A DNA stretch of 61,628 nucleotides. It comes from a virus. This document shows positions 41,486-59,059 of this stretch, piece by piece. The DNA is taken from the UHGV virus genome UHGV-1709118; one strand, given 5' to 3'. Both the position numbers and the translations under genes were made by a program. The stretch's first letter is position 1. Every line of letters begins with the position of its first letter. Under the pieces are notes generated by a model. It saw nothing but the letters and a program-made list of their open reading frames with translations, ran no database searches and was not told the DNA's origin.

Positions 41486-41498
41486 AAAGTAATTATTT

Positions 41499-41527: not shown

Positions 41528-41575
41528 AATTTTAAAGATTAAAGAAAATAACTTTTTAACAAAGGAGAATTAACA

Positions 41576-42467: not shown

Positions 42468-42480
42468 AGGAGAGAAATAA

Positions 42481-43659: not shown

Positions 43660-43661
43660 AA

Positions 43662-44360: not shown

Positions 44361-44694
44361 CAAATATTTTAAAAATCTTAAAGAAATTCCTTTTCCCTAT
44401 GCGGAAAAAACTTATGCGAAATTAGACCAAAGAGATTGTTTTAATTTGGATACTTCTTTATTTGCTTGGCTTTATGAGCACTTACAGGCTTATTATGATG
44501 AGGCTAGTGTTAGTATTGATTTAATGGAATATAAATATAACATTAATGGAGAAGAACTGAATGAAAAAGAATGTATCTTTAGAATGATTGAAGATTGTAA
44601 AATTATTCTTGACACTTCTGAATATGAAAATTTTGCTGAAAGAAATGATTTATTTGATGTTTTGAAGGAATGTATTTGGAGTTTATGGTATTGA
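44347..44694 (+). CDS. hypothetical protein
   Basis: 115-aa ORF. Confidence 0.4.
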   Translation: MMRDNKYFKNLKEIPFPYAEKTYAKLDQRDCFNLDTSLFAWLYEHLQAYYDEASVSIDLMEYKYNINGEELNEKECIFRMIEDCKIILDTSEYENFAERNDLFDVLKECIWSLWY

Positions 44695-45077
44695 TTTTAA
44701 ATTTCTGCGAAATTTAAAATCAGAAGGAGAGAAAATATTTTAGAAATTCGTTTTTTGAATTTAAAATTGATTTGTATCCTTTTTCAAATTTAAAAATAGT
44801 TTAGAGAGGGAAATGTCCAGGCCAAATGGTTTTTAATAACAAATATAATTTTTTTCCCGAAAACTACCCCGGAGTACGCCAAACCATTAAACTATCTTTC
44901 ATTGGTAAATATCCATTGACCCCACAAAGGCCCCATCAAACAGTATCTTCTGTAAACAACCATTCATTAATCAAAAGAGAAATGATCTTGTCAATAGGCA
45001 AATTAAACAAAATTATTCTTCAGCAAAACGCATAAAGAAGAACTCTTAATTTCTTTTTCTTTTGTTCAATGTGTCAA

Positions 45078-45106
45078 TAGACAAAAGGCTATCTCGATGG
45101 TATAAT
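45078..45106 (+). promoter_or_regulatory. early promoter
   Basis: TAGACA, 17-bp spacer, TGgTATAAT, then conserved leader acagaaattaagg. Confidence 0.45.
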
Positions 45107-45140
45107 AAATACAGAAATTAAGGAAAGGGGTCAATGACCT

Positions 45141-45488
45141 ATGAAAAAGTTCTTCTCTATCATCGCTATTCTAGCAATCACTATCTCTGCTCTCACTACT
45201 TCTGCTTGCGCTCTTAGCACTCCTGCTGAAAATGCCAGATACTGTGCAACAAACAGCATCCACTATGGTATGAATACTGTTCGTCTGGTTCGCGCTACTG
45301 TTACTGCAACTCATGATGATGGATGTGTGACATTGAAAGACATGCGTGATGGCAACCTGTACGCCATTGATGATGATGGCCTTGTGAAAGGTGAGGACGT
45401 TCTCATTGCCATTGACGACAATGCTACACCAGGTTTTGTCTATGATGACATGATTCTTGGCTTCTGGAATGGTTCTGCTCTTAAATGA
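45141..45488 (+). CDS. secreted/lipoprotein-like small protein
   Basis: signal-peptide-like N-terminus MKKFFSIIAILAITISALTTSACA; GC-rich. Confidence 0.5.
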   Translation: MKKFFSIIAILAITISALTTSACALSTPAENARYCATNSIHYGMNTVRLVRATVTATHDDGCVTLKDMRDGNLYAIDDDGLVKGEDVLIAIDDNATPGFVYDDMILGFWNGSALK

Positions 45489-45496
45489 GCAGAACC
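45471..45496 (+). terminator. rho-independent terminator
   Basis: ggttctgctc-ttaaat-gagcagaacc then T-run; stop codon in loop. Confidence 0.55.
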
Positions 45497-45538
45497 ATTT
45501 TTCTTTTTTATTTTATAAATAAATAAATGAAAAAGGTA

Positions 45539-45567
45539 TTGACATTCTGGTTAAGATATGGTATACT
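45539..45567 (+). promoter_or_regulatory. early promoter
   Basis: TTGACA 45539-45544, 17-bp spacer, TGgTATACT. Confidence 0.55.
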
Positions 45568-45594
45568 ATAGATAGTAAAAGGAGGAAAGATCAA

Positions 45595-45798
45595 ATGAAA
45601 AAGACTTTTGAGTTCTATGCTTGCTCACCTGTTAAGACATGGCGAAACAACTACCAGGGAGAAAGTTGGCAGTGGGCTAAAGTTCAATGGTTTCGCTTTC
45701 CTTCTGGTTTGCGCAAGTGCTTAGTCTTTCCTGATGGTCAGGCAATCAAGATTGAACTTTGTAAGGTTAAAAATAAAAGAGAGGTTGGAGAAGTATGA
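45595..45798 (+). CDS. hypothetical early protein
   Basis: 67-aa ORF with RBS aaaggagg. Confidence 0.45.
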   Translation: MKKTFEFYACSPVKTWRNNYQGESWQWAKVQWFRFPSGLRKCLVFPDGQAIKIELCKVKNKREVGEV

Positions 45799-46010
45799 AG
45801 AAATACTGGATAGACAATGAATGTATGATAGATTTTATTGAAATGTATTGTGAGGGTAAAAGCTTTCTATGGAGATGCTTCTTTGGTTGGAGAAAGACTT
45901 CTTTCAAACCTAATGGAGACTTGCACTGGAGAGCTTACATTATACCAAAGAGAATATATCAGAAAGCATTAGTCTTGGCTAAGAAGTATGATGAGTATGA
46001 AGTAGTATGA
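45795..46010 (+). CDS. hypothetical early protein
   Basis: 71-aa ORF overlapping previous stop. Confidence 0.45.
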   Translation: MKKYWIDNECMIDFIEMYCEGKSFLWRCFFGWRKTSFKPNGDLHWRAYIIPKRIYQKALVLAKKYDEYEVV

Positions 46011-46252
46011 TGGGAGAAGAGGTAAGCTTAGCTTATCTCTTTTCTTTTGTTTAATATACTTGTTATAAACGAATGTCTTCGTTTTACAAGGCAACTTTCC
46101 GAATCAGTATACCACAAAGTCTGCTCAAAATCAATAGTCAAAATAGCTAAATTTAGAGAGAGAATTGGGATCCCGAATTGTGCAGTATACCTATTGACCT
46201 ATTGCGGCAAGTATGCTATTATATAATTACAAAAGGGAAGGAGATAAAACAA

Positions 46253-46438
46253 ATGAAGAACATCAAGAAGATCATTGGTGTTAAGATGGACAAAGCTAAC
46301 AAGGCGATCCTTGACAAGTGGAAGGAATGAATCAAAGAAGAGGGCCGCGACAAAGAAAGCAAGAATAACTTCGCTAACTACTACGCTAACTCTTATGAAG
46401 AGTATCAGCAGATTTGGGAAGTGGTTGAATGTTTGTAA
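46253..46438 (+). CDS. small ORF interrupted by a single in-frame TGA (46328-46330); possible readthrough or two short ORFs
   Basis: promoter and RBS upstream; 25 codons, TGA, then 36 further sense codons in frame. Confidence 0.25.
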
Positions 46439-46507
46439 AAAAAAGTCTTGACAAGAAGCTCAGTCTGTGGTATTATATAATCAAGATAAAGAAAGGGGAA
46501 ACAAAAG

Positions 46508-46840
46508 ATGACTAACAAGGAATTATTCGACAGTCGGTACACCGCAACCTACTATGAAAGCGCTTATGTGCTTCACAATGGAGACTTGACTCTCTACTAT
46601 CCCAACTGCGGTTATGACCCTGAGAAAATCATGGTCTGGAAGATCACTGCTGAGGACTACCGCTTTTATGGCAAAGGCGCTCTGAAAGAACTGCTGGAAG
46701 TTCTTTACAAGGAAGCTGCTCCTGAGCTGGTGGCTCTGGTTGATAGTAAACTCCGGTTGGCAACCGATGATGAGGAATGTGCTACGCTTGTTAAACACAA
46801 GTATCCCAACGACAAACAGCACTACATTGATATGTGGTAA
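46508..46840 (+). CDS. hypothetical early protein
   Basis: 110-aa ORF after promoter TTGACA-17-TGgTATTAT. Confidence 0.5.
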   Translation: MTNKELFDSRYTATYYESAYVLHNGDLTLYYPNCGYDPEKIMVWKITAEDYRFYGKGALKELLEVLYKEAAPELVALVDSKLRLATDDEECATLVKHKYPNDKQHYIDMW

Positions 46841-46861
46841 AAAGTAAAGGAGCTGATTAGA

Positions 46862-47083
46862 ATGATAACAATCCTTCACAAAGCAGGTATTGCTTTCAGG
46901 GGAGAATATCTCCGGGAAGCTTGCAGGAAGAACTACGATTGGCTTACTTTAATGTATGCCGTTGAAGATTATAACCGCGCTGTGAAGCGTTACTACAAGT
47001 ATGTTTCTCGCCACCACGCAGTTATCCTTAACAAATATCCTTCTGGCGATGTTATCGCTCTTGAAGAAGGGGTAATTCTATAA
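46862..47083 (+). CDS. hypothetical early protein
   Basis: 73-aa ORF followed by terminator 47084-47104. Confidence 0.45.
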   Translation: MITILHKAGIAFRGEYLREACRKNYDWLTLMYAVEDYNRAVKRYYKYVSRHHAVILNKYPSGDVIALEEGVIL

Positions 47084-47199
47084 GGGCCGCAAGGCCCTTT
47101 TTCTTTTTGTTATATGCTTATATGGTGAAACTTCTAGGCTTCTAGCAGTAAAAAAAAAAAAAAATAAATAAATAAAAATTTTTTTTGTTCAATTTACCT

Positions 47200-47228
47200 A
47201 TTGACAGCAAAGCAAAAGTATGGTATAA
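47200..47228 (+). promoter_or_regulatory. early promoter followed directly by GC-rich hairpin (no ORF)
   Basis: TTGACA 47200-47205, 17-bp spacer, TGgTATAAT 47220-47228; hairpin 47238-47272. Confidence 0.5.
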
Positions 47229-47462
47229 TAATTGCGGCGGCGCGCACACGACCATGGCCTCCCAGTGTGCGCCGAAATTCTGTCAATACGCAAATTGCAC
47301 AAAAATTTAGAGGAAAGTTTGGTGATTTTGCCCAGAAGTATTCATCCCGAAATGGTGTTTGTTTATAAAAAGTATAGCGGCAAAATATCATCAAAATTGA
47401 TTATTGAATTTCTTAAAAATTTTTGTTATAATAATTACAGAAAACAAAAGGAGGTCAAAAGT

Positions 47463-47624
47463 ATGACTGAATACCGTGACTGGTTGGTAGTTTTCCCCAA
47501 TGGTGGACAGATACACTTTGATAACAAGGGTATCGCAATGCGGAACGCGACTCGCAAGAAAGGCTCTGTTTATGAGTGTCATCTGGAAGAGAATGGGAAT
47601 GAAACTCTCATTCATATCTTTTGA
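47463..47624 (+). CDS. hypothetical small protein
   Basis: 53-aa ORF from ATG 47463 with RBS aaggagg; track ORF 47232-47624 N-terminal extension spans promoter/hairpin and is rejected. Confidence 0.4.
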   Translation: MTEYRDWLVVFPNGGQIHFDNKGIAMRNATRKKGSVYECHLEENGNETLIHIF

Positions 47625-47639
47625 TAGGAGGTATTATGT

Positions 47640-47819
47640 ATGAAGCAAACTTATTCTATCTATCATGCTGGCGATGAAGAAATTATCGGGCCTTTTGATT
47701 CCTTTTCATTGGCAGAGGATTTCTTTCATAGGTTAGCTCAGTATGCTACTACAATGTATTACTTGGTAGATGATTCTACTGGTGAAATTCTTCTTGATAT
47801 TGAAGAAATTAAGGCTTGA
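47640..47819 (+). CDS. hypothetical small protein (59 aa, not in ORF track)
   Basis: ATG 47640 preceded by ataggagg; open to TGA 47817-47819. Confidence 0.35.
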   Translation: MKQTYSIYHAGDEEIIGPFDSFSLAEDFFHRLAQYATTMYYLVDDSTGEILLDIEEIKA

Positions 47820-47877
47820 CATTTGGGCCTTACCGTGGTATAATTACCATAGAAACAAAGGAAAGAGGTTGATACTT

Positions 47878-48333
47878 ATGACTGACAAGATGTTGGCTTT
47901 TGATATGGACGGCACTATTGCTGACCTGTATGGAGTTAATGGTTGGCTGTCTAAACTGCGGAAGGAAGATGCAAGCCCTTACCTGGAAGCTAAACCCATG
48001 TGGGATGTGGATAAGCTCAACGAGCTTATCAATAAACTAAAGCAGGCTGGTTGGGAGATTGCAATCATCACTTGGCTTTCTAAAGAAAGCAGTCCTGAGT
48101 ATGCAAAGGCTGTGCGAGAAGCTAAAAAGGCTTGGCTCTTGAAATGGGGTTTCCCCTATGATCATTTTCATGGTCTAAAGTATGGAGCTACTAAAGCGAA
48201 TGCTGTTCGTAGAAAAGCATCTAAGGCAATTCTTATTGATGATAATAAGAAGGTTCGTGATAGTTGGCATTTGGGAGAAACTGTCAATCCTGAAACTTGT
48301 GACATCATTGATTTTTTGGCTTCCCTGCTTTAA
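47878..48333 (+). CDS. HAD-superfamily phosphatase, 5-prime(3-prime)-deoxyribonucleotidase-like
   Basis: N-terminal FDMDGTIADL motif (DxDGT); start at ATG 47878 after promoter and RBS. Confidence 0.55.
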   Translation: MTDKMLAFDMDGTIADLYGVNGWLSKLRKEDASPYLEAKPMWDVDKLNELINKLKQAGWEIAIITWLSKESSPEYAKAVREAKKAWLLKWGFPYDHFHGLKYGATKANAVRRKASKAILIDDNKKVRDSWHLGETVNPETCDIIDFLASLL

Positions 48334-48353
48334 GCAGGGAGTCAAAAAAGTTC

Positions 48354-48382
48354 TTGACAAATGAGAAAAAATCTGGTATAAT
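48354..48382 (+). promoter_or_regulatory. early promoter
   Basis: TTGACA 48354-48359, 17-bp spacer, TGgTATAAT; leader acagaaattaagaaagaggt. Confidence 0.55.
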
Positions 48383-48415
48383 GAGTACAGAAATTAAGAA
48401 AGAGGTAGATGCAAC

Positions 48416-49123
48416 ATGAGCATTGATAGGCGCAGACATTATGTTCTGCTTCTGGACACTGAGACAGCAAACACCATCACTGACCAAAAAGGCCGATTAG
48501 ACATGACCTCAGTTCTTGTCTATGATTGCGGGTGGTGTGTTATGGACACAAGAGGAAATATCTACAAGGAACAATCCTTTGTTAATCGAGATATTTTCTT
48601 TGATGAAAGTGAGCTTATGAAATCCGCCTACTATGCGGAAAAGATTCCCCAGTATCTGGAAGATATTCGACAGGGTATCCGGCAAGTAGCTAACACTTAC
48701 CAGATTCGACAGGCTATGCTTGCAGACATGGCAGAATATGGTATTACAGAGGTAGTTGCCCACAATGCAAGATTCGACCTGAACGCATTGAATTTACTTC
48801 AACGCTGGACTACCAAAAGTAAATATCGCTATTGGTTCCCCTATGGTACCGATATTTGGGATACTCTCAAAATGGCAAGAGACGTTATTCTAAAGATGCC
48901 TACCTATAAAAGGTTCTGTGAACAACACGGTTTCTTAACCAAAACTGGTAAACTCTCAGCGACAGCAGAAAATTTGTATAGATTCATCTCCAAAGACCCT
49001 ACTTTTCAGGAAGAACATAAAGGTCTTGACGATGTGCGAATTGAGCGAGAGATTATGGTCTACTGCTATCGGCAAAAGAAGAAAATGCGGAAAAAACTTT
49101 TTGAAAATCAAAAAACCGCTTGA
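48416..49123 (+). CDS. DnaQ-like 3-prime-5-prime exonuclease (DEDDh)
   Basis: Exo motifs LLLDTETAN, VAHNARFDL, EHKGLDDV. Confidence 0.6.
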   Translation: MSIDRRRHYVLLLDTETANTITDQKGRLDMTSVLVYDCGWCVMDTRGNIYKEQSFVNRDIFFDESELMKSAYYAEKIPQYLEDIRQGIRQVANTYQIRQAMLADMAEYGITEVVAHNARFDLNALNLLQRWTTKSKYRYWFPYGTDIWDTLKMARDVILKMPTYKRFCEQHGFLTKTGKLSATAENLYRFISKDPTFQEEHKGLDDVRIEREIMVYCYRQKKKMRKKLFENQKTA

Positions 49124-49232
49124 CAAAACAAAAGGAAAATGATATAATATAAGAGAAGTGAGGGAGATAAAACCCTCCCCACTTCCTTAACAATTAGGGT
49201 AGCGACCTACCGCACAGAAAGGAATTGATATT

Positions 49233-49589
49233 ATGACTAACGAGAAGAAGATTACTAACAAGGGCGCCCTTCAGTATGTTCTGGACAACTGCGAGATTCC
49301 TGCCGACGTTCGTGCCAAGATTGAGATTCTGCTCCATCAGCAGGAGAACAAGAGCCGCGGTAGTGGTAAGCCTACTGCAACTCAGACTGAGAACGCACGT
49401 CTGATTGAGGTGATTGCCGACACTCTGCCCAAGGGCGAAGCTTTCACCATCTCCGACATTACCAAGACCATTCCTGAGCTGAACGGCTTTACCCCTCAGA
49501 AGGTTGGCCCCATGCTCAAGAAGCTGGTTGAAACTGGTCGAGCCACCCGTGACACCAACAAGGGCAAGGCATACTACACTATGGTGTAA
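49233..49589 (+). CDS. hypothetical protein, paralog of 55318-55734 (possible winged-helix)
   Basis: shared motifs with 55318 ORF (QTEN...LI...KTIPEL...TPQ...PM.K.LV..G.A..DT.KG.A); about 50 percent GC. Confidence 0.5.
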   Translation: MTNEKKITNKGALQYVLDNCEIPADVRAKIEILLHQQENKSRGSGKPTATQTENARLIEVIADTLPKGEAFTISDITKTIPELNGFTPQKVGPMLKKLVETGRATRDTNKGKAYYTMV

Positions 49590-49648
49590 TAATTAAATAA
49601 AGAGGGGCATTAAGCCCCTCTTTATTTTCTCAAAAAGGATGGTGTTTA

Positions 49649-50011
49649 ATGATAGATGAGACTAGGGTTAAACATCTTCAAAAGGTGTTAGACCTTGATA
49701 GAGAACAAGCTTTAGCAGTTATTGCCGATGATGAAGCAATAGATAAAGGTGCAGATCTTTTCCCACTTACTGATGAACAAAAGAAAGTAGAAAAGAAAAT
49801 GCGGTTATCCGGCAAAGAGAAAGGCAAGTATACTATGAATGCTCCCCGACAGCGCAAGGTTGACAATGACAAACATCGCTTGATTGAGATTATTGCGGAA
49901 TCTCTTGAACAACTTGAAATTGAAACTACCATCAATAACCCAGAACGAGAAATTGAGATAGTTTTTAATGAAAGACGTTTCAAAATTACATTAAGCGCTC
50001 CTAGAAAATAA
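49649..50011 (+). CDS. hypothetical protein, paralog of 55759-56148
   Basis: shared DKG...LT-EQ-KV-KK ... LI ... NPER-I ... F ... TL motifs. Confidence 0.5.
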   Translation: MIDETRVKHLQKVLDLDREQALAVIADDEAIDKGADLFPLTDEQKKVEKKMRLSGKEKGKYTMNAPRQRKVDNDKHRLIEIIAESLEQLEIETTINNPEREIEIVFNERRFKITLSAPRK

Positions 50012-50263
50012 TAATAAAACCGGCTTATTTTTTATAGGCCGGTTTTCTTTTTTGCCCAATACTTTTTAATGGCAAATGTTTGACGGCCCGCGCATGGTCA
50101 AGCGCTGCCGCATTTCAATTATACCAGGTAATCCGACTTTTGTCAATGGGCAAACCGCACAATTATTTGACTTTTTGTTTTCCCAAAATTGGTGATTCTG
50201 CCTATTGATTTTTTTATTAAAATTTTATATAATATAATTGTTCCAAGGGAAAGGAGAAACAAA

Positions 50264-50458
50264 ATGAAGATTAATTATAAATCTTTCAGCGTGGAAGTTT
50301 TTGGTGAAAATATTTGGGGCCAAACCTATCTGAACAGAGTAGGCTTTGATTCTGAGGAAGAAGCCGATAAGTTCATTGAATCTCTGGAAAAGGAAGAAGG
50401 AATTTATTCGGCAATTAAAATTGTAAATACAAGTTACAATTTCAGAAAAAACCCTTGA
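50264..50458 (+). CDS. hypothetical small protein
   Basis: ATG 50264 with RBS aaaggaga. Confidence 0.4.
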   Translation: MKINYKSFSVEVFGENIWGQTYLNRVGFDSEEEADKFIESLEKEEGIYSAIKIVNTSYNFRKNP

Positions 50459-50515
50459 CAAACAAACCAAGACGTGTTATAATAAACACAGAAATTAAGA
50501 AAGAGGTTGATAATT

Positions 50516-50737
50516 ATGAAAGCAAGCACTAACACAAAAATCAATATCGACATCACCGGCATCTGCATGTGGTTCCTCTCTTCCCTCTTCATTTGGCTGG
50601 GCTGGAAAGTTCTGGTGGCTCACTTCGGCTTGCCTTACTTTACCTATCTGGAAATCTTCGCCATGCGTATGGGGCTGGATGGTCTTGCAAGCATCTTCCG
50701 CAAGAAAAAAGAAGTGGAAGGCGAAAATAAGGCTTGA
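50516..50737 (+). CDS. small membrane protein
   Basis: 73-aa ORF with hydrophobic core; promoter TTGACA 50455-50460. Confidence 0.45.
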   Translation: MKASTNTKINIDITGICMWFLSSLFIWLGWKVLVAHFGLPYFTYLEIFAMRMGLDGLASIFRKKKEVEGENKA

Positions 50738-50762
50738 CAAACGTCAAGCCGAATGGTATAAT
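50734..50762 (+). promoter_or_regulatory. early promoter with palindromic -35 region
   Basis: TTGACA 50734-50739 inside palindrome ggcttgac-aaac-gtcaagcc (50731-50750); TGgTATAAT 50754-50762. Confidence 0.5.
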
Positions 50763-50786
50763 AATAACAGAAAGAGGTTGATGTAA

Positions 50787-50930
50787 ATGATTTCTACTAT
50801 TGCTCTGGCTTCCCTGGCTGCTATTATGATGGTGAAGGTGTTCGTTGCGGTTGAGCGTGAGGATTACCGCAAAATGTTCGCTAGCGGATTTGAGTTCGCT
50901 CTTCTGCTTCTGACTTTGGCTAATATTTAA
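50787..50930 (+). CDS. small hydrophobic peptide (47 aa, not in ORF track)
   Basis: ATG 50787 after agaggttgatg; open to TAA 50928-50930. Confidence 0.3.
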   Translation: MISTIALASLAAIMMVKVFVAVEREDYRKMFASGFEFALLLLTLANI

Positions 50931-50943
50931 GGAGGTAAATATA

Positions 50944-51192
50944 ATGAGAATTTATTCTATTAAACATCTGTTCGACAAAGAAGTTGCTGGTTTTTATCGA
51001 GAAATGAAAGAAAGCGTTGAAACAAAAGAAGAAGTAGAAAATGCCGTTTATCTGGTAATGGGTATGCAGGTTATGGCAAGTATTATCGCCGAAGGAAGTG
51101 ATGAAGAGGTTCTTGCCATTGAACATGAAACTTGGGATTATTGGATTCCAAAGTTTAAGAAACTTCTGGAAAATCTTCCTGAAAAGACTTGA
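50944..51192 (+). CDS. hypothetical early protein
   Basis: 82-aa ORF with RBS aaggaggt. Confidence 0.45.
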   Translation: MRIYSIKHLFDKEVAGFYREMKESVETKEEVENAVYLVMGMQVMASIIAEGSDEEVLAIEHETWDYWIPKFKKLLENLPEKT

Positions 51193-51217
51193 CATACGTC
51201 AAGTTCTATGATATAAT
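51189..51217 (+). promoter_or_regulatory. early promoter with palindromic -35 region
   Basis: TTGACA 51189-51194 inside palindrome acttgac-atac-gtcaagt (51187-51204); TGaTATAAT. Confidence 0.5.
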
Positions 51218-51248
51218 AAAGCCATAATAAAGAAAGGAAGTCGATATC

Positions 51249-51446
51249 ATGACTAAAGAAGAACTTTTAAACACTTTGCAGGAGGTCGGCTATGAATGGA
51301 GCAGAACGCTCAATGAGCACAAGTATGACTACTCGGATTTCGAGTGGAAGATGCTCGGCTGGGTAGCTGGTGAATTGATTGACCATTTCGATCAGGCAAT
51401 TGATTCAATTCGTGATGAACTTCAGGAGGAGGAAGAAGAAGAATGA
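51249..51446 (+). CDS. hypothetical acidic small protein
   Basis: 65-aa ORF. Confidence 0.45.
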   Translation: MTKEELLNTLQEVGYEWSRTLNEHKYDYSDFEWKMLGWVAGELIDHFDQAIDSIRDELQEEEEEE

Positions 51447-51691
51447 GAATGACAGAAAGAATCGAGAGATTTTTCAATCTTGATGAAGAGGAGAAGGAAA
51501 TTCTCAAAAAGGCTAGTTATATTCTCTGCGACATGGCAGAAAATGTTGATGGTTTAGGAAAAATTTCCTTAACTTATGAGAATTTTACTGAACCATTCGC
51601 AAAAACTCGGAGTTATGATGAAGGGAATCTTTATGATTTCTCATACCTATTAGCTGTTCTTTCTAAGGCAGAAACAATTGAAATTGAATAA
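51443..51691 (+). CDS. hypothetical early protein
   Basis: 82-aa ORF overlapping previous stop; terminator 51695-51719 follows. Confidence 0.45.
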   Translation: MRMTERIERFFNLDEEEKEILKKASYILCDMAENVDGLGKISLTYENFTEPFAKTRSYDEGNLYDFSYLLAVLSKAETIEIE

Positions 51692-51776
51692 AAATAAGGG
51701 CCTTTGGCCCTTATTTTTTACTTGACAGATTTTTCTTTCTATGTTATAATAACAATAGAAAAGGAGATGAAGCAAA

Positions 51777-51980
51777 ATGACAGATTTTGCAAGAACTGAA
51801 ATTCTTCTTAAAGCTTTACAGGAAGCAGGAAGATACATGCGGAAATATTTACCCGCAGAAATGCCATTAGGCGAAGATGCTGATATTACAAGATACTGTT
51901 TAATAAATGGTAATCAAGACCCGGAAGGCTCTAAGTTTGTAGAATACTTCATTCTTAAAGCATTTGATAATTATAAGTAA
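51777..51980 (+). CDS. hypothetical early protein
   Basis: 67-aa ORF after promoter TTGACA 51722-51727 and RBS aaggaga. Confidence 0.45.
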   Translation: MTDFARTEILLKALQEAGRYMRKYLPAEMPLGEDADITRYCLINGNQDPEGSKFVEYFILKAFDNYK

Positions 51981-52226
51981 GGGCTAAAAGCCCTTACTTT
52001 TTTATTTCTATATTTATTATAAACAAAAGTCAAGTGATAGTAAAGTTTGGCGGCGCGTTGATGGCTGACATGCGCCGCAATTTAATTATACCTCAAGCCA
52101 CGCCTTTTGTCAAGAGCAAAAGTGCATAAAAACAAGGCAGACAAAAATCCCGAATTTGTGCATTTCGCCAATAGACAAATAAGACCTGCCGTGTTATACT
52201 ATAATCACAGTAAGGGAGGAGATAAC

Positions 52227-52871
52227 ATGACAGAGATGGAACAGACTGTTCTTCAGTGGCTTGAAGATTTGGCGATTGACCCTTCAATGACCGATTGGGA
52301 CATTCAGAACCGGATGAAAGAGATTAAGCTTGGAAGCGAAGCTGCTATGGATTGCGGTTCTAGCAAGATTTGTCTCATCCCTCACAACGCCAACTTTGTT
52401 ATTAAGTGGACGTATAGCGACCCTGACGAGCTTACCAATGATGAAGCTCTGAAAGAGGTTGACATGTATAACAAAGCTGTCGAAGCAGGTTTAGGCATGT
52501 TCTTCCCCAAGACCGAGCTTTTCTGCACAATGAACGGAATCAATTTCATCAAGCAGGAGAAGATTGATTTTGCGGTTTGTGGCTGTTCCTATCAGACCTT
52601 TAAGCGGTATAAAACCAAGACCAAAACCGCAAGTGACCAGAAAGCGCAACTCATGAACAAGTGCTTCAAGAAAGCGGCTCCTAATGGGCGCTATGCAAGA
52701 AACTTAGACCCTCTTTGGGCTAAGATGGCTCTTGTTATCTATGGCAAAAGACTTTGCAAAACTCTTTGCGAGTTTGTCATTGAGAACAGAATCAATGACC
52801 TGCACGAATCCAACATTGGTTACAAAAATGACCGCCCAATCATCTTAGATTTTAGCGGTTTTGATAGATAA
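52227..52871 (+). CDS. hypothetical protein
   Basis: start at ATG 52227 after RBS aagggaggag; track ORF 52107 start lies in promoter/hairpin region. Confidence 0.45.
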   Translation: MTEMEQTVLQWLEDLAIDPSMTDWDIQNRMKEIKLGSEAAMDCGSSKICLIPHNANFVIKWTYSDPDELTNDEALKEVDMYNKAVEAGLGMFFPKTELFCTMNGINFIKQEKIDFAVCGCSYQTFKRYKTKTKTASDQKAQLMNKCFKKAAPNGRYARNLDPLWAKMALVIYGKRLCKTLCEFVIENRINDLHESNIGYKNDRPIILDFSGFDR

Positions 52872-52876
52872 AAGGC

Positions 52877-52905
52877 TTGACAAAGACCGGACTGTATGGT
52901 ATAAT
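52877..52905 (+). promoter_or_regulatory. early promoter
   Basis: TTGACA 52877-52882, 17-bp spacer, TGgTATAAT. Confidence 0.55.
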
Positions 52906-52937
52906 ACAGGTACAATAAAAGAAAGGAAGTAAAAAAC

Positions 52938-53336
52938 ATGAAAGCTACTGGTATCATTCGCCGCATCGATGACCTGGGTCGGGTGGTCATCCCCAAGGAA
53001 ATCCGCCACAATATGCACATCTGGGAAGGAGACCCTTTGGAGATTTATACTGCTTCGGATGAAATTGTTCTCCGCAAGTATGTTCCATCCGCAGAAAACA
53101 AGGCTTCTATTGCTCAGAAGTGGTTAGAGGACAATGCTCATATGTTATATGGCACTTCTGCAAAGTTCAGTATTGAGGGCAGAACTACTGTTTGCGAAGT
53201 TATCAGCAATAATCATCGCCTGACTGGAAAAGCAACAGCCACAACAAATGACACTTTCATTCCCGCGGTTGGTATGGTTATTGCTTATTGCCGAGCCGTT
53301 GGTTGGACTATTCCCAAAGAACTTATTGAGGATTAA
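52938..53336 (+). CDS. AbrB/SpoVT-family transcriptional regulator-like protein
   Basis: N-terminus GIIRRIDDLGRVVIPKEIRHNMHIWEGDPLEIY...IVLRKY matches AbrB swapped-hairpin domain signature. Confidence 0.6.
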   Translation: MKATGIIRRIDDLGRVVIPKEIRHNMHIWEGDPLEIYTASDEIVLRKYVPSAENKASIAQKWLEDNAHMLYGTSAKFSIEGRTTVCEVISNNHRLTGKATATTNDTFIPAVGMVIAYCRAVGWTIPKELIED

Positions 53337-53658
53337 AAAATTGCAAAAAGGCTTGACAAAGCTCTTCTTCTGTGATATAATACAAGTACAGTCAAGGGAG
53401 GTGATAAAGTGCTTTAGTGGTAAACAAATGAATAAAAAGGAGTAAAGCGAATGATAGATATTACTAGACACCCGCCGCCATGCTAACCCAATTATTACAG
53501 AATTTTGTTTGCACTGTTGTTTTACATGAACGAAATAAAACCATATAGTGCTGCGGAGATTTTCTTAGCTTTTTCTATTGCTCCAAAGTAATAAACAACA
53601 AGAAAGCTATCAGAGTAGGCGCCGCTCTGATAAAATAAAACAAAAGGAAGTTTTACAA

Positions 53659-53946
53659 ATGACAAAACAGGTATTATTTCTTGACCTTGAAGGAACTGTC
53701 CATGCCGGTTTGCTTTTGGATGATGGTAACATTATCTGCGGATGTTGTGGTTCTTTGATAGAACTTGGTGATTATTTACTACTCCATGTTTACAAAGAGT
53801 GGGTAGATATTGAGGAAGAAATCTGTGGGGATGATTTACTCCTTAAAGATTTCCAGAGAAAAGTAGACAGCTTATCTGTTAAAGAGATAGAAAAAATTCT
53901 TACTGAAACAGATGCAAGTAATTTGATAAAATCTCTTGACAAGTAA
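53659..53946 (+). CDS. hypothetical Cys-containing small protein
   Basis: ATG 53659 after RBS aaaggaag; preceded by about 250-nt ORF-free leader. Confidence 0.4.
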   Translation: MTKQVLFLDLEGTVHAGLLLDDGNIICGCCGSLIELGDYLLLHVYKEWVDIEEEICGDDLLLKDFQRKVDSLSVKEIEKILTETDASNLIKSLDK

Positions 53947-53990
53947 GTAAAAGCATGATATAATAACAATAGAAAACAGGAAAGGAATTG

Positions 53991-54524
53991 ATGATTATGT
54001 TCTCTATCAAAAATTGTAATAGCGTTCTGGAAGGTGCTGCTCAGGTCGTTAAACTGTTCGGGGATGAACCCTTCACTTCTGATAGATATGATGCGGCTCG
54101 TGGTAAGGGACGCTCTAAGGCGGAAACTCTCTTCAACCACAACATCATCAAAGTGGTGGGTAAAGCGCCGGTCTATGATACAAATTGGCCTAGATGCAGA
54201 GAAACTGCTCCTTATGTAACAAACCGTGCCGGCGAACTTCTTATGAAGTATAAGGAATACAGAGAGCTGCCGGTAGCGGCAAAGGAAGCTCTAATTGCAG
54301 CCAATGGTGGGGAAGAGTTGGGCATCCACTATGATAGAAGTGATATTACTATCTGCTATCGAGATACTTTTGCCTTTAATGCAAGCGGGTATCAAGAATA
54401 TCTCCAGGAAGTTTATACGAATCTTCTTTTTCAGATAGAAAGTAAGAAACAGGAAGTTCTTAAAATGGAGGATTGTTTTGGTAAGGTAGTTAAAGCATTT
54501 CAAGCAAATGCAATGAAGTTATAA
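53991..54524 (+). CDS. hypothetical protein
   Basis: ORF track 53988-54524; promoter TTGACA-TGaTATAAT overlaps previous gene end. Confidence 0.45.
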   Translation: MIMFSIKNCNSVLEGAAQVVKLFGDEPFTSDRYDAARGKGRSKAETLFNHNIIKVVGKAPVYDTNWPRCRETAPYVTNRAGELLMKYKEYRELPVAAKEALIAANGGEELGIHYDRSDITICYRDTFAFNASGYQEYLQEVYTNLLFQIESKKQEVLKMEDCFGKVVKAFQANAMKL

Positions 54525-54613
54525 AAATCTTTCACTTTGTGCAATTTATCTATTGACAAAACAAAGCAAAGATGCTATAATGAATACAGAAATTAAGAAA
54601 GGAACTGATAGCT

Positions 54614-54835
54614 ATGCTGTGTATGAAGAACGTGTTCAATGTCATGAAAGGTATCACTCGCGTAAGAGATAAGTTCAGAGGAAAAGGGTTCACTTTTTCT
54701 GAGTATAGCACCGATGACTATCAGAATTACTTACGTTATTTACAGACTGCGTTTGAATTAAAAACTATGGACAAAGAGCAGGAACTTGACAAATTGAAAG
54801 CTAATCTTGACAAAGTGGAAAAGGAAATGAGATAA
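54614..54835 (+). CDS. hypothetical small protein
   Basis: 73-aa ORF; bidirectional-type terminator 54841-54867 follows. Confidence 0.45.
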   Translation: MLCMKNVFNVMKGITRVRDKFRGKGFTFSEYSTDDYQNYLRYLQTAFELKTMDKEQELDKLKANLDKVEKEMR

Positions 54836-54881
54836 AAAAATGAGGGATTTTTCCCTCATTTTTTTTTGTACATTTTGCCTA

Positions 54882-54910
54882 TTGACAAAACCGCAGCTTT
54901 ATGGTACAAT
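54882..54910 (+). promoter_or_regulatory. promoter driving ORF-free GC-rich hairpin transcript
   Basis: TTGACA 54882-54887, 17-bp spacer, TGgTACAAT 54902-54910. Confidence 0.5.
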
Positions 54911-55020
54911 GGCGCGGCGCCCACGGCTGTGGAGCGCCGAAATTTCAATTATACCACGCGGCACAAAATTTGTCAAGAGTTAAACTGCACAAAATCTATT
55001 TGGGAAAAATCCCACTTTTT
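54911..55020 (+). ncRNA. candidate small RNA (5-prime GC hairpin, weak terminator)
   Basis: promoter immediately upstream; hairpin 54911-54939; gggaaaaatccca + T-run at 55001-55020; no RBS-ATG ORF. Confidence 0.3.
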
Positions 55021-55317
55021 GTGCAATTTGCCTATTGCAATTTGGGTGAAATCTGATATAATAAATAATGTCAGGAGGGAGTAGCCCAAGAAATCCTAGG
55101 GCGGCCGACTTAGAGAAAGTATAGGAAGTAAACGGAATACATCAAGTGGTAAGTCTTATATCATGTGGTAATTGTTATTGCCCAACATGCTCTGGAAGCC
55201 GTAAATCTTGTGAAAAGTTTGCGAAACCTCTTGACAAACCCCAAGAAACATGCTATAATAAGCATGTAATCAAGAGAAGGACAAACTCTTAAAAACCAGA
55301 AAGCGAGATAGGTGTTT

Positions 55318-55734
55318 ATGGAAAATACTAACAAGAGAATTACTAAGCGTGAGCGTTTCCAGTCTTTGATTGAGCTGGTGGAACTGTGCGAAGGCCGTGA
55401 GGATGAAGGCTTTGACTTTGAGGGTCTGACCGATTTCCTTTCCAATGAGATTCGCCTGCTGGACGCTAAGAAGGGTTCCAATTCCCGCAAGCAGACTGCC
55501 CGCCAGACTGAGAATGAGCATTTTAAGGCTCTGATTGCCGAGCGGTTGACCGAAGAGGGCATGACTATTGCAATGCTCCGCAAGACCATTCCTGAACTGG
55601 AGGATTTGACTCCCCAGCGTATTGCCCCTATGTGCAAGGCTCTTGTCTCTGAGGGTATTGCTTACAAGGATACCTGCAAGGGTATCGCCCACTTTTACAA
55701 GGCGCAGGCCGTAGTAGAAGAGGAAGAGGGCTAA
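55318..55734 (+). CDS. hypothetical protein, paralog of 49233-49589
   Basis: see paralog; ATG 55318. Confidence 0.5.
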   Translation: MENTNKRITKRERFQSLIELVELCEGREDEGFDFEGLTDFLSNEIRLLDAKKGSNSRKQTARQTENEHFKALIAERLTEEGMTIAMLRKTIPELEDLTPQRIAPMCKALVSEGIAYKDTCKGIAHFYKAQAVVEEEEG

Positions 55735-55758
55735 GGCCCTCTTCCCTAGAAGGGAGGT

Positions 55759-56148
55759 ATGTTTTTGGATAAAGCAAAAGAAGCAATCGCAAGAATCCAA
55801 GCCGGCATCAAATGCAGCTATGAAAAAGCAGTAGAAATCTATAAGACAGATTGCGAGGTTGACAAAGGCATCCCGCATGAATGGGATTTGACCGAGGAAC
55901 AGCAAAAGGTAGCAAAGAAATATACTATTACCGGGCAACATACTAAGAAGCATGACCGCAAGGCTCCGGTCAAAAGAGAAAGAAAAGAGAACCCCACTAA
56001 AGCAAATTTGATTGCGGAACTTGCAGGTTTTCTTGAATCTTTGGGGATTTGTGACGTAAAAATTGCAAATCCTGAGCGACAGATTGCTTTTTCTGTGGAT
56101 AATAACGCCTTTGAGCTGACTTTAGTTCAAAAAAGGGCCAAAAAGTAA
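55759..56148 (+). CDS. hypothetical protein, paralog of 49649-50011
   Basis: see paralog; RBS gggagg. Confidence 0.5.
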   Translation: MFLDKAKEAIARIQAGIKCSYEKAVEIYKTDCEVDKGIPHEWDLTEEQQKVAKKYTITGQHTKKHDRKAPVKRERKENPTKANLIAELAGFLESLGICDVKIANPERQIAFSVDNNAFELTLVQKRAKK

Positions 56149-56205
56149 AGTTTTTGGCCCTTTTCACTTAAAAAAGAGCTAATTTTGACGAAAAAGGTGA
56201 TGTAA

Positions 56206-56550
56206 ATGCAACAAAAGAAAGAGTATTTGTATGTAGGTCACTATTTTGACATAGAAGGCAACTACATTCTCAAAATAGGCACTACTAACGATTTAGCCCG
56301 GAGACAGCAAGAGCATACCAGAAATTATAAGCGTTCACCTAAGTTTACTATGCCGAAATCCGCTAAGTTTGTCTATGATTGGCATCTGCCTTTATCTAAG
56401 TATTCAACTTTGCGGTATGAGGATAAGAATCGTGCAGCATGGCAGGAATCTTCTATCGGCGAATTTGTCCGCAATGACAGATTTTGCTGTAAGCAAAAGC
56501 CCAAGAAAGTAAAGGTTACTATCCGCAAAACTTATGAGATCGAGTTATAA
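56206..56550 (+). CDS. GIY-YIG-like nuclease domain protein
   Basis: YLYVGHY...ILKIGTTNDLARRQQEH resembles GIY-YIG motif (GIY ... YIG-T-N-L-R ... E/H). Confidence 0.4.
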   Translation: MQQKKEYLYVGHYFDIEGNYILKIGTTNDLARRQQEHTRNYKRSPKFTMPKSAKFVYDWHLPLSKYSTLRYEDKNRAAWQESSIGEFVRNDRFCCKQKPKKVKVTIRKTYEIEL

Positions 56551-56563
56551 GGAGGAAGAAAAC

Positions 56564-56782
56564 ATGGTTGTTATTAAAAAGCAGTGCGAAGTTCACTTAT
56601 CCCAGGAGGAAATTGACTGTCTTGAAAAAGCAGCTGACATTCTCAATGAAATTTGGTCAGTAATGCCTGCTGAAAGTTATATTGGTGATAAGAAAGTAAT
56701 GTATGCTGAGGATGTCGGAGAAATGTCAGATAATCTGCAAGACTTGGCAACTATCGGAGAAAATATTGTGGTTGAAGATTAA
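56564..56782 (+). CDS. hypothetical small acidic protein
   Basis: ATG 56564 after RBS aaggagga. Confidence 0.4.
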   Translation: MVVIKKQCEVHLSQEEIDCLEKAADILNEIWSVMPAESYIGDKKVMYAEDVGEMSDNLQDLATIGENIVVED

Positions 56783-57101
56783 CGGTTACCAAAGGATAGT
56801 GGTTAATAGCCACTATCCTTTTTTATCCCTATACTTGTTATAAGCAAAAGTAAAGTAATAACAAAACTCAGCGGGCCGCACTTGGTGGATGCGGCCCGAA
56901 TTCGCGTCAATACACATTTTCCACAATTTTTCTGCTTTTGATTTGTACAATTTTACTTATTGACATTTTCCTAAAATTATGTTATTATATAATCACAAAA
57001 GGAAAGGGGATTTAAAAATTTCAAAAAAATAAAAAAGGTCTTGACAAACCAGGGCAAAGATGCTATAATGAATACAGAAATTAAGGAAAGAGGTTGATAG
57101 T

Positions 57102-57377
57102 ATGAATGAACGCAGAGACTTCATTGCAAAGAACTGGGGTGAGGATGTTCTTGAAGCTATTGATAGCTGTGAGCCGTTAAACATTACCTTTGGCCAGTTT
57201 TTGGACAAGTGCGTTGCTTGCGGTGGCAACTGGGGCGGTATGCTTCTAACTGGCCTGAAGAAGTTGCGGCCTGAGATTTGGGAAGCCATTCCCCAAAATA
57301 TGGGTCTTTATGCTTGGCAGTGCATCTGCAATACTTTAATCCTTGCTGGTGTGGTTATGGAAGAAGAAGAGGGCTAA
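57102..57377 (+). CDS. hypothetical early protein
   Basis: 91-aa ORF after promoter TTGACA-TGcTATAAT and conserved leader. Confidence 0.45.
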   Translation: MNERRDFIAKNWGEDVLEAIDSCEPLNITFGQFLDKCVACGGNWGGMLLTGLKKLRPEIWEAIPQNMGLYAWQCICNTLILAGVVMEEEEG

Positions 57378-57410
57378 AAAGCCCTTTTCCATAAAGAAAG
57401 GAAGGTAGAA

Positions 57411-57692
57411 ATGGAAATTAGAAAACCTACGAATTGGTTGGATGCTAAAGGGATGCTTGACAAAACACTACAAGCAAGATCTACAGTAATCACTGAAGCC
57501 CTTGGGCAAATTATGTTTAATCTTCTAAGTGCCGCAGAAGATGGAAAATTTGCTACTACTATTAATCTTCTAGAAGATACAAAAATTATTACTCAAATAC
57601 TTGAGGAAGCAGACTATAAGGTTCAATTTCTTAAACCAAATGGTGAATACTCACAATATATTGTTTGCTGGGAAAAGGAGGACGAAGAATAA
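57411..57692 (+). CDS. hypothetical early protein
   Basis: 93-aa ORF. Confidence 0.45.
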   Translation: MEIRKPTNWLDAKGMLDKTLQARSTVITEALGQIMFNLLSAAEDGKFATTINLLEDTKIITQILEEADYKVQFLKPNGEYSQYIVCWEKEDEE

Positions 57693-57883
57693 TGATTATC
57701 AAAATTACTGACCGCTACAACGGCGATTTCGCGAAGTTTGATTCTTTGCAGAAAGCCTATGACTACTTCATGGACTATGACAAAGAATGTGAGGGAGATT
57801 GGTGGCCATTGATTACTATTGATGGGGCTTGGGTTCCTCTGGAAGAGTTTTTCGTGATGTATAAAGAAAAGGGGTGCAAATGA
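57692..57883 (+). CDS. hypothetical small protein, tandem paralog A
   Basis: MIIKITDRYNGDFAKFDSLQKAYDYF... similar to next ORF. Confidence 0.4.
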   Translation: MIIKITDRYNGDFAKFDSLQKAYDYFMDYDKECEGDWWPLITIDGAWVPLEEFFVMYKEKGCK

Positions 57884-58074
57884 TAATGACTATCAAAATT
57901 ACTGAGTTATACGATGATGATGTGGCAGAGTTTAAGTCTCTGCCAGAAGCATGGGCTTATTATTGTTATTGGGAAAAAGAATCTAAAGGGAAATGGTTGC
58001 CACTGATATTTATCAATAGAAAGATGGTATCACATGAAACGTTCTATAAGATGTGTAGAAAGGTGGGTGTTTAA
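57880..58074 (+). CDS. hypothetical small protein, tandem paralog B
   Basis: MTIKITELYDDDVAEFKSLPEAWAYY... similar to previous ORF. Confidence 0.4.
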   Translation: MIMTIKITELYDDDVAEFKSLPEAWAYYCYWEKESKGKWLPLIFINRKMVSHETFYKMCRKVGV

Positions 58075-58542
58075 TTGTCTTTACTCTTGTTATTCATTGG
58101 TCTTTCTATCGCCAATGTGGTTTTTTCGACAATCAAAAGCATTGTAACTATTAACGGCACACCATTTTCCGCAAGCATGATTTCCGCTTTATACTATGGT
58201 TATTATAACATAGTTCTTATTTACACAGTCGCGGATTTCCCTCTGTGGCAGAAGGTATTAGTTACCTTTGGCTGTAATCTGGTTGGCGTGTATGCGGTTA
58301 AGTGGGCGGAAGCAAAAGGAAGAAAAGAAAAGTTGTGGCGAATTGAGGTTACTGTCCCTAGTGAATTTACAAAACAACTTCACGAAAGATTAAACCCAAT
58401 CCCGCACAACTATATTGAAAATGTAGGTAAATATTCAATTTTTAATATTTACTGTGCTACACAAATGGAGAGTAGCCAAGTCAAGAAAATTCTGGTGGAT
58501 TACAATGCCAAATACTTTGTGACAGAAACTAAAGAACTCTGA
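58075..58542 (+). CDS. membrane-associated hypothetical protein
   Basis: 155-aa ORF (TTG start) with hydrophobic N-terminal half; terminator 58532-58570. Confidence 0.4.
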   Translation: MSLLLLFIGLSIANVVFSTIKSIVTINGTPFSASMISALYYGYYNIVLIYTVADFPLWQKVLVTFGCNLVGVYAVKWAEAKGRKEKLWRIEVTVPSEFTKQLHERLNPIPHNYIENVGKYSIFNIYCATQMESSQVKKILVDYNAKYFVTETKEL

Positions 58543-58623
58543 GAATACTCAGAGTTCTTTTTTTGTTTTTTCTAAAAAATTATGTTATAATATATATAGA
58601 AATTAAGGAAAGGAGCTTTTCTA

Positions 58624-58740
58624 ATGACCTGTGAATTATTAAAGGCACTTGCGGTGATTATTGAATACTGCTTAAAGCAGGATAATTGCAAAGTTTGTGT
58701 TATGCGTGATTTCTGTTCTAAGATGCCTTGTGAGTGGTAA
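58624..58740 (+). CDS. Cys-rich mini-protein (38 aa, not in ORF track)
   Basis: ATG 58624 after aaggaaaggag; CxxxxC...CxxC pattern. Confidence 0.3.
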   Translation: MTCELLKALAVIIEYCLKQDNCKVCVMRDFCSKMPCEW

Positions 58741-58827
58741 ATTACTTTAAAGATTTTAGAGATAGAAAGGCCCGTTTTAGGGTCGAAATTTCGCACGTCT
58801 AGGTCATCAGAAAAAAAATATCTGGAT

Positions 58828-59028: not shown

Positions 59029-59053
59029 CATAAGGCTGGTTTTATGGTATACT
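59025..59053 (+). promoter_or_regulatory. promoter for ORF-free transcript
   Basis: TTGACA 59025-59030, 17-bp spacer, TGgTATACT 59045-59053. Confidence 0.55.
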
Positions 59054-59059
59054 ATATAT

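Follow-up and report, generated by a model that had tools for sequence, protein, structure and literature searches.

The subject of the present analysis is a GC-rich (guanine-plus-cytosine-rich) island in the UHGV virus genome UHGV-1709118, of which one strand of 61,628 nucleotides (the window) was examined. The sequence belongs to an uncultured SPbeta-like siphovirus from gut metagenomes, and the island, at positions 45078-59053 on the plus strand, is an array of promoter cassettes that holds some 30 small genes as well as a few non-coding units at 39-40% GC, against 27-31% on either side. Matches to TTGACA-N14-TGnTATAAT with at most one mismatch occur at 25 sites in the window, where shuffled sequences lead one to expect 0.05, and 23 of these sites lie within the island, which amounts to roughly one promoter per gene or gene pair. 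The usual layout consists of an A-tract, TTGACAAA, a 17-bp spacer, TG, TATAAT and a strong ribosome-binding site (RBS); most of the array promoters stand 24-35 nt 5' of a start codon and are followed by a purine-rich RBS, and one subfamily has the common leader ACAGAAATTAAGAAAGAGG. The region scanned for terminator-like hairpins, 41200-59500 with the island inside it, has 35 of them versus 11.7 expected, and several directly follow cassettes on the 3' side, some cassettes having none. With promoters of their own and many hairpin terminators, these units make the island a bank of autonomous expression cassettes. The promoters are of the sigma-A type and of predicted maximal strength, which would point to early expression of the array. 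A preliminary description of this DNA had already called the block at 45141-57400 early, a label that looks apt in view of the consensus sigma-A promoters.

The first array promoter (45078-45106, 11/12 with extended -10) forms the left edge of the island, 35 nt 5' of the open reading frame (ORF) that begins at 45141. Promoters 45539-45567 and 46448-46476, both 11/12 with TG, serve ORFs 45595-46010 and 46508-46840, while perfect promoters at 47816, 48354 and 49120 (47816-49148) serve HAD-like, exonuclease and winged-helix-turn-helix-like genes. Four further perfect promoters, at 50455, 50734, 51189 and 51722 (50455-51750), carry the leader ACAGAAATTAAGAAAGAGG and each have a small ORF 24-32 nt downstream. 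Another five perfect ones follow at 52877, 53353, 53936, 54553 and 55231 (52877-55259), together with one of 11/12 at 54882, and a tandem pair, 56960 (11/12) and 57041 (12/12), occupies 56960-57069 upstream of ORF 57102. The last array promoter, 59025-59053 (11/12), forms the right edge; all of these lie on the plus strand. This last promoter fires into about 150 nt of hairpin-rich sequence ending in a terminator-like stem and U-run, and the stretch 59054-59400 offers only a doubtful 55-aa GTG ORF and a folding z-score of -1.8, which is not compelling.

Among the few recognisable products of the island are a HAD-like phosphatase/nucleotidase of 151 aa (47878-48333, plus strand, PHROG matches), which is one of the few clade-conserved array genes, a DEDDh-type exonuclease-like protein of 235 aa (48416-49123, plus strand; phrog_20187, E=3e-44; PADLOC DEDDh, E=2e-5), an AbrB/MazE-fold DNA-binding protein of 132 aa (52938-53336, plus strand; PF04014, E=2e-8; phrog_4681), a second AbrB/MraZ-like small protein of 66 aa (58828-59028, plus strand, from the Pfam and PHROG scans) and a T5orf172 fragment. 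The two-gene cassette at 49233-50011 (plus strand; 118 and 120 aa) begins with the GC-richest ORF of the window (51.8%; GC at third codon positions, GC3, 0.64), and one source labels a homolog of this cassette 'predicted transcriptional regulator'. Its paralogous counterpart at 55318-56148 (plus strand) shares 40% and 36% amino-acid identity with it and has GC3 values of 0.58 and 0.39. The 214-aa protein encoded at 52227-52871 (plus strand, GC3 0.52) belongs to a large family restricted to the phage clade, whose members in other phages of the clade are likewise encoded inside promoter arrays, and ORFs 57692-57883 and 57880-58074 are similar to each other, as internal paralogs. Apart from the DEDDh exonuclease domain, a PADLOC scan for defence systems returned nothing; no tRNA was found, nor any integrase or transposase domain in the island by the Pfam and PHROG scans. 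Four ORFs or ORF N-termini (54866-55084, 47232 to about 47440, 50189 to about 50260, and 47770-47877) are unlikely to be coding, since they hold a GC-rich hairpin or a consensus promoter, whose TTGACA reads '..LPID..'. The gene calls of public assemblies start further downstream, with the HAD gene at 47878 and a 64-aa ORF at 50264.

A second promoter class, with the upstream element TTGTnCAnTTT (TTGTnCAnTTTnnCTn), drives units of about 100 nt that have a conserved GC-rich hairpin at the 5' end (GCGGCGC...GCGCCGC) and an intrinsic terminator. Such units are found at 47201-47275, 50016-50146, 51975-52113 and 54834-55014, and three of them are antisense to the cassettes. At the first site a perfect class-II promoter (47201-47229, plus strand) fires into the GC-rich hairpin 47236-47275. 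The minus-strand unit at 50016-50146 comprises promoter 50118-50146, the 5' GC hairpin and terminator 50016-50046, and a second minus-strand unit at 51975-52113 comprises promoter 52085-52113 and terminator 51975-51999. At 54834-55014 two promoters stand face to face, 54882 on the plus and 54976 on the minus strand, with terminators at 54834-54865 and 55001-55014; their predicted transcription starts are about 24 bp apart, and the pair could act as a switch. An Rfam scan, the 100-nt units included, gave no family at or near the gathering threshold.

The two antisense units are also the left and the right repeat of an indel. A segment of 1.97 kb (50155-52036, plus strand) with four to five cassettes is present in the window and absent from L001, a genome about 95% identical to it. 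A three-way alignment showed the corresponding site of L001 to combine the two class-II promoter units that flank the segment, as a chimera whose crossover lies within the promoter common to both. The event looks like homologous recombination, and since the crossover falls inside a repeated promoter, the repeated regulatory elements would act as recombination linkers. L001 has in addition one extra promoter-ORF-terminator cassette and one swapped ORF. Generalising from the one event seen, we suppose that recombination at the repeated promoters may add, remove and exchange cassettes, and in consequence the array would evolve separately from the clonally inherited virion module.

Composition of the island and its recurrence across the clade

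In a 1-kb profile, the DNA from about 45 to 58 kb has 36-45% GC and the remainder of the window mostly 24-35%. The shift which the preliminary description reported is thus real, far beyond chance, and the computed GC and GC3 profiles, far from being uniform, step at the island; its size was overstated, and its borders and the framing as early versus tail genes were off. The block at 45141-57400 has 39.5% GC, compared with 27.0% for tail genes 8900-16386 (given earlier as about 25%), and the whole minus-strand virion module (3489-41350) has 30.5%, so that the step amounts to about 10-12 points. The early ORFs then named, given as about 45-50%, have 51.8%, 50.1% and 45.6% and are extremes in a block of 39.5% GC whose ORFs span 31-52%. 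Pooled GC3 is 0.411 for the 32 block ORFs versus 0.159 for 26 late genes (Mann-Whitney p=1.2e-11), while GC at second codon positions is equal (0.330 and 0.329) and at first positions 0.470 versus 0.432; intergenic GC is 0.344 in the block and 0.279 among the late genes. The compositional shift is therefore almost entirely synonymous. Per-gene GC3 is bimodal, a two-component mixture with means of 0.163 and 0.385 reaching a Bayesian information criterion of -77.9 versus -66.1 for one component, and adjacent cassettes are very uneven in GC3 (chi-square 150, 30 df). The left border of the GC-rich DNA is sharp, at about 45,100; the right one lies at about 59,050, beyond the end of the block at 57,400.

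Both flanks of the island are low in GC. On its left, an operon on the plus strand (41499-44694) starts from one perfect promoter, at 41499, and encodes a ClpP-like protease, a SleB-like hydrolase and a P-loop protein; its coding part, 41576-44694, has 31.0% GC and a GC3 of 0.22. For the right side, the sequence past the window end was fetched as a contig by way of a window protein, and about 25 small plus-strand genes lie there in tight operons with 30.7% GC, a GC3 of 0.226 and one consensus promoter (L106 in our numbering of fetched loci). Because small-gene operons on both sides are of low GC, the GC-rich DNA forms a discrete island and does not follow an early-versus-tail rule. A rule by which early or small genes are of high GC was likewise rejected, both flanking small-gene operons being low in GC and phage SPbeta flat.

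The island is not peculiar to this genome. Relatives found by TerL (62-75% identity) were retrieved together with flanks of 10 kb and dereplicated to 28 loci, and the arm upstream of the packaging genes proved GC-richer than the structural genes in 22 of the 28 and GC3-richer in 27 (mean +0.144, Wilcoxon p=1.5e-8). Promoter density in these 28 relatives is 1.01/kb on the array strand versus 0.009/kb in the structural modules. The array span exceeds the structural genes by 5.0 GC points (n=25 relatives, p=8e-7) and the intervening single-promoter operon by 5.3 (n=21, p=1e-5), while that operon hardly differs from the structural module (+0.4). Three further arms, reached through homologs of one array protein, contain 21-41 promoters at 36-51% GC, with GC3 up to 0.72, and there too a low-GC first operon precedes the array. 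The promoter array holds a conserved genome position in all clade relatives examined, although most array ORFs have no homolog in relatives of about 70% TerL identity. The GC-rich array is, then, a lasting feature of this compartment throughout the clade and not a one-off import. The cultured relative PMBT24, a virulent phage of Enterocloster bolteae (PMC11035940), has neither promoter array nor GC island.

Origin of the GC excess

Within the virion module, the genes for a tail-tube-like protein (27595-28536), a capsid-like protein (32271-33308) and a scaffold-like protein (33327-33989) have GC3 values of 0.26-0.35 versus about 0.10-0.20 in other late genes. They favour T-ending fourfold codons, AAG, CAG, GAG and CGT (0.68) and avoid A-ending codons, a bias typical of translational selection on highly expressed genes. 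These genes serve below as the reference for such selection (the capsid set).

The preliminary description supposed that the block may have been acquired horizontally from a higher-GC lineage. A single import from a higher-GC phage or host, its composition not yet drifted, would fit the atypical GC and GC3, the sharp left border, the raised GC of the intergenic DNA and a general rise of GC in the codons, as from a different background composition; we nevertheless regard it as very improbable. The same compartment and offset recur in about 25 dereplicated relatives with mostly different genes, and the clade-conserved array genes, too, lie above TerL and portal of their own genome in GC3 (26 of 29 pairs, mean +0.12; for the HAD gene in all nine dereplicated relatives, mean +0.21). 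The notion that high GC marks recently acquired ORFans was rejected on the same count, conserved array genes carrying the offset. Across relatives the GC of the block follows that of the backbone (slope 1.24, r=0.83), which is not as predicted from a fixed external donor pool. Nor is the dinucleotide signature foreign, delta* being 84 between block and late genes and 85 among late genes, in segments of 7 kb that limit the power of the comparison, and divergence from L001 is alike in block (92-96% nucleotide identity) and backbone (95-98%). Adjacent cassettes differ strongly in GC3, and the island shows no integrase or tRNA. As for the taxonomy of best hits among the early proteins, both array families searched are clade-restricted and occur only in metagenomes, with 15 clusters for the family of the GC-richest gene and more than 219 for that of the 214-aa protein, all from metagenome assemblies; a search with the GC-richest gene for close relatives returned the same phage species only. 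Clade-wide offset, GC co-variation, conserved genes and dinucleotides all run contrary to the supposed acquisition. An artefact, in the form of a chimeric assembly of two phages differing in GC, has the sharp step in its favour and nothing else. The 45.1-kb junction and the arrangement are found in independent assemblies from different samples (ENA ERZ27261223, Logan ERR1137710, IMG/VR 3300045988_145614), by which a chimeric assembly is ruled out, and the arrangement is seen in dozens of relatives as well, so that the chance of such an artefact is vanishingly small.

Three forces acting within the phage have also to be weighed. Translational selection alone, by which the synonymous sites of strongly expressed cassettes would be tuned to the host tRNA pool, agrees with the correlation between GC3 and the GC-independent T-over-A preference at fourfold sites within the block (rho 0.69, p=3e-5) and with the GC3-rich cassettes, in which, as in the capsid genes, A-ending codons are avoided in favour of AAG, CAG, GAG and CGT; codon usage is also reported to differ between early and late genes in about half of the phages studied (PMC5683454). 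As the whole cause we hold it to be unlikely, however, since pooled T-over-A is no higher in the block (0.70) than in ordinary late genes (0.67; capsid set 0.89), three relatives show the correlation only weakly (rho 0.12, 0.31 and 0.27, none significant), and the left-flank operon combines a perfect promoter with low GC3. Moreover, GC rises in every codon family of the block, including the capsid-avoided CTG (0.20 vs 0.04), CCC, CGG and GGG, while the capsid favourites are depleted (CGT 0.12 vs 0.68; also GCT, GGT and CCT). Selection of the capsid type may explain some of the heterogeneity among cassettes; it does not explain the block-wide offset. The earlier suggestion of different codon selection is accordingly borne out faintly, in that codon-level composition does differ, whereas the block bias is unlike that of the capsid set. 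A recombination-associated bias, with the repeated promoters as a hotspot where biased conversion or repair raises GC, would suit the documented recombination at promoter elements, the high turnover of cassettes, the joint shift of synonymous sites, intergenic sites and all codon families, and an offset kept clade-wide whatever the gene content. The analysis yielded no direct evidence for such conversion, some relatives have arrays that lack a GC excess, and the genes of a single cassette differ as much as 0.64 versus 0.28 in GC3, with the paralogous cassette in the same order (0.58 vs 0.39), so that GC3 looks gene-specific and not regional; we therefore think this bias quite unlikely. Lastly, composition might be tuned to the host RNA polymerase, which, still unmodified, would have to read the region at once; higher GC would then mean fewer spurious promoters, less termination ahead of time or less AT-targeted silencing. 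Island and sigma-A promoter array do coincide, and promoter-like sites are indeed sparser in its coding sequence (2.3/kb) than in late genes (5.9/kb), but compared with synonymous shuffles there is no active avoidance beyond what codon usage brings (z=+0.8). The low-GC operons on both flanks also start from sigma-A-like promoters, and the arrays without GC excess tell against this tuning as well, which leaves it distinctly improbable.

On balance we lean, by a little, towards the reading that the island is a clade-wide promoter-cassette compartment which recombines and is kept nearer to a host-like mid-GC composition. Related gut phages have been assigned to Eubacteriales hosts (PMC10607447). 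PMBT24 has 32.1% GC, with GC3 of 0.17-0.22 in core genes and 0.36 in the capsid gene. The GC content of E. bolteae is about 49-50%. Phages of the group thus appear to lie far below their Clostridia hosts in GC, and we suggest that the backbone may be at an AT-rich mutational equilibrium while the array is held, or continually reset, nearer to host-like mid-GC codon usage. The likely reasons for the excess would be that the array is transcribed and translated directly by unmodified host machinery at the onset of infection, and that it turns over quickly.

Several observations weigh against this reading. 'Host-like' rests on PMBT24, one distant cultured relative, and on the GC content of its host. 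Arrays without GC excess are present in L028, L060, L075 and partly L043, and a perfect sigma-A promoter likewise drives the low-GC operon 41576-44694, so that high GC takes more than strong promoters. The T-over-A preference of the block, as given above, is close to that of the late genes and not to that of the capsid set. The array genes that are shared have diverged further than TerL (35-57% vs 66-75%), and no recent transfer of a cassette between phages was caught among the relatives compared. A bolder proposal, which we find rather doubtful, is that the SPbeta-like clade of about 100-190 kb possesses a 'plug-and-play' platform, where 20-40 near-identical promoters (1-2/kb) would double as recombination linkers for tiny early genes and the GC excess would come from GC-biased conversion or from escape from AT-targeted silencing. 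If this were true, the regime of recombination or expression, not ancestry, would set base composition in a natural phage system.

The phage backbone, related systems and significance

The AT-rich virion module (3489-41350, minus strand, GC3 0.16) encodes tail fibres, a 2857-aa tape measure, tail and head proteins, portal and TerL, and Pfam families assigned to the identical genes of public assemblies include YonG, YonD, YonB, YomW, YomV and YomU of SPbeta. The same sequence is found on an ENA assembly of 137,652 bp, whose overlapping ends indicate a circle of about 137.6 kb, and a second genome, about 95% identical, is available from IMG/VR (137,669 bp); the window makes up about 45% of the phage genome. 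Even the best matches among deposited TerL sequences, which include large siphoviruses of Enterococcus and Geobacillus and phage phAss-1 from the human gut, are below 60% identity, and this puts the phage outside any named genus. A megablast search of 50,697 deposited phages with the block and with the tail region gave no match. A scan of species genomes with TerL returned only contigs of metagenome-assembled genomes with discordant labels (Bacteroidales, Treponema, Oscillospiraceae, Eubacterium, Tenericutes and Gastranaerophilales), several of them (L087, L088) of phage-genome size, about 148 kb. Stop-codon recoding occurs in the related phAss-1 group (PMC10607447); it was rejected for the present phage, whose late genes are long ORFs in the standard code, e.g., the one of 2857 aa. 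The TerL gene of L001 bears two insertions of about 1.1 kb (L001 2638-4854, corresponding to 38422-38500 of the window), probably introns, inteins or homing-endonuclease insertions, and that of the window (37364-39109) is without them. The TerL matches of L079-L082 are also stretched (about 1970-2010 bp), and in the Enterococcus phages EF1 and EF5 an HNH homing endonuclease lies under the TerL match.

Several neighbouring features deserve mention. Between the virion operon and the plus-strand operon lies a divergent control region (41351-41575, 18% GC) with a bidirectional terminator-like palindrome (17-bp stem, 41452-41488), a perfect plus-strand promoter at 41499 and an 11/12 minus-strand promoter at 41414; the relatives have back-to-back near-consensus promoters at the same site. 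Inside the low-GC operon, the gene at 42481-43053 stands alone in being GC-rich (41.4%, GC3 0.31). It encodes a cell-wall hydrolase of the SleB/CwlJ type (Pfam Hydrolase_2) whose N-terminus resembles a signal peptide, and it may be host-derived; PMBT24 likewise encodes a 'spore cortex-lytic enzyme precursor'. Further right, an AT-rich intergenic region of 355 nt (60117-60471) is where four independent assemblies break (at about 60,180-60,420) and within which the two ends of the ENA assembly overlap; it could be a repeat, a strain-variable spot or a packaging or termini region. At the other end, window positions 1-2354 and the sequence to their left (L099 6902-8665) hold a complete diversity-generating retroelement, with a reverse transcriptase (Pfam RVT_1) at 1368-2354 and a template repeat at about 710-817. 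Its variable repeat is the 3' end of the gene for a 587-aa Big_3-domain protein left of the window, which the first 18 nt of the window complete; all 19 mismatches between template and variable repeat fall at template adenines, and a 154-aa ORF (212-676) occupies the position expected of an Avd-like accessory gene. Close to the retroelement, about 5 kb left of the window (L099 3628-4245), a 205-aa resolvase-family serine recombinase is encoded, the sole recombinase seen. It is too small for an SprA-type integrase of SPbeta, and the phage may be temperate or virulent.

Of the systems already described, the morons of temperate phages, a concept from HK97/HK022 (PMC3594210), come close to the cassettes of the array: they are autonomous units with their own promoter and terminator, unlike their neighbours in GC, present or absent between close relatives and coding for small accessory proteins. 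The cassettes have their own predicted promoter, in many cases a terminator-like hairpin, a deviant GC3 (0.41 vs 0.16-0.23 in the flanks) and presence/absence polymorphism. Morons, however, are isolated insertions in conserved operons, each with an imported promoter and an idiosyncratic GC offset, whereas 20-40 units are here gathered in one dedicated array at a fixed position, with near-identical consensus promoters and a systematic, clade-wide offset. Morons are also expressed from the repressed prophage, while the cultured relative PMBT24 is reported to be virulent (PMC11035940).

SPO1's host-takeover module, comprising 26 small early genes that have strong promoters and RBSs and lie in a terminal region of 12.4 kb (PMC6873191), resembles the island as a cluster of 12-14 kb with some 25-30 small genes mostly without assigned function, in many short, presumably immediate-early operons with near-consensus sigma-A promoters and strong RBSs. 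Yet SPO1 is a myovirus of the Herelleviridae and not an SPbeta-like siphovirus, and its module lies in the terminal redundancy, whereas the present genome assembles as a circle and a scan of the window found no direct terminal repeat. The array here is also much denser, the same scan giving only five sites of at least 11/12 in the 13-kb SPO1 module (4397, 6740, 7486, 9529 and 13088), and this module exceeds its neighbours by no more than 2 GC points (42.1 vs 39.9). PHROG and Pfam scans revealed no homology to SPO1 gp37-60.

GC bimodality within a phage genome is, as such, textbook knowledge. By the same measure lambda is even more bimodal, with 57.0% GC in the left arm against 37-38% in the b region and GC3 of 0.61-0.69 against 0.27-0.35, so that the first view of such bimodality as unusual is not supported. 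In lambda the two levels likewise follow functional modules, but with reversed polarity, since there the virion genes are GC-rich and the accessory b region AT-rich, whereas here the cassette array deviates. SPbeta has virion proteins homologous to those of the window (the Yon and Yom families) and the same architecture, with a minus-strand virion operon facing the small plus-strand genes of its early cluster (yonR-yop-yoq), but lacks both an array of consensus extended -10 promoters (0 sites in 134 kb) and a GC step (early 33.7%, late 35.9%). With a horizontally acquired island the array shares the atypical base composition but not an atypical GC-independent oligonucleotide signature (in 7-kb segments, of limited power). 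Its borders showed neither mobility genes nor a tRNA, all relatives examined have the compartment, and the two families searched gave no homologs from a donor lineage of matching composition, only from metagenomes. An integron-like cassette array would differ as well, for the Pfam and PHROG scans found no integrase here and the repeats at the cassette borders are promoters. The literature searched held no description of a clade-wide array of dense consensus promoters with elevated GC.

The main interest lies in what the GC shift marks, a dense clade-wide promoter-cassette array, and not in the shift itself. GC shifts within genomes are routinely read as horizontal transfer; here the shift marks a conserved functional compartment with turnover of genes, which calls for caution in island-calling and in composition-based host prediction. 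The phages of this clade offer a test bed for what sets base composition in phages far more AT-rich than their hosts, and the array supplies natural promoter and RBS modules, of predicted maximal strength, for poorly tractable hosts. In practice, each genome has about 30 small, strongly promoted and presumably early genes and the clade as a whole hundreds, so that these arrays provide prime candidates for host-takeover or anti-defence functions in gut Clostridia.

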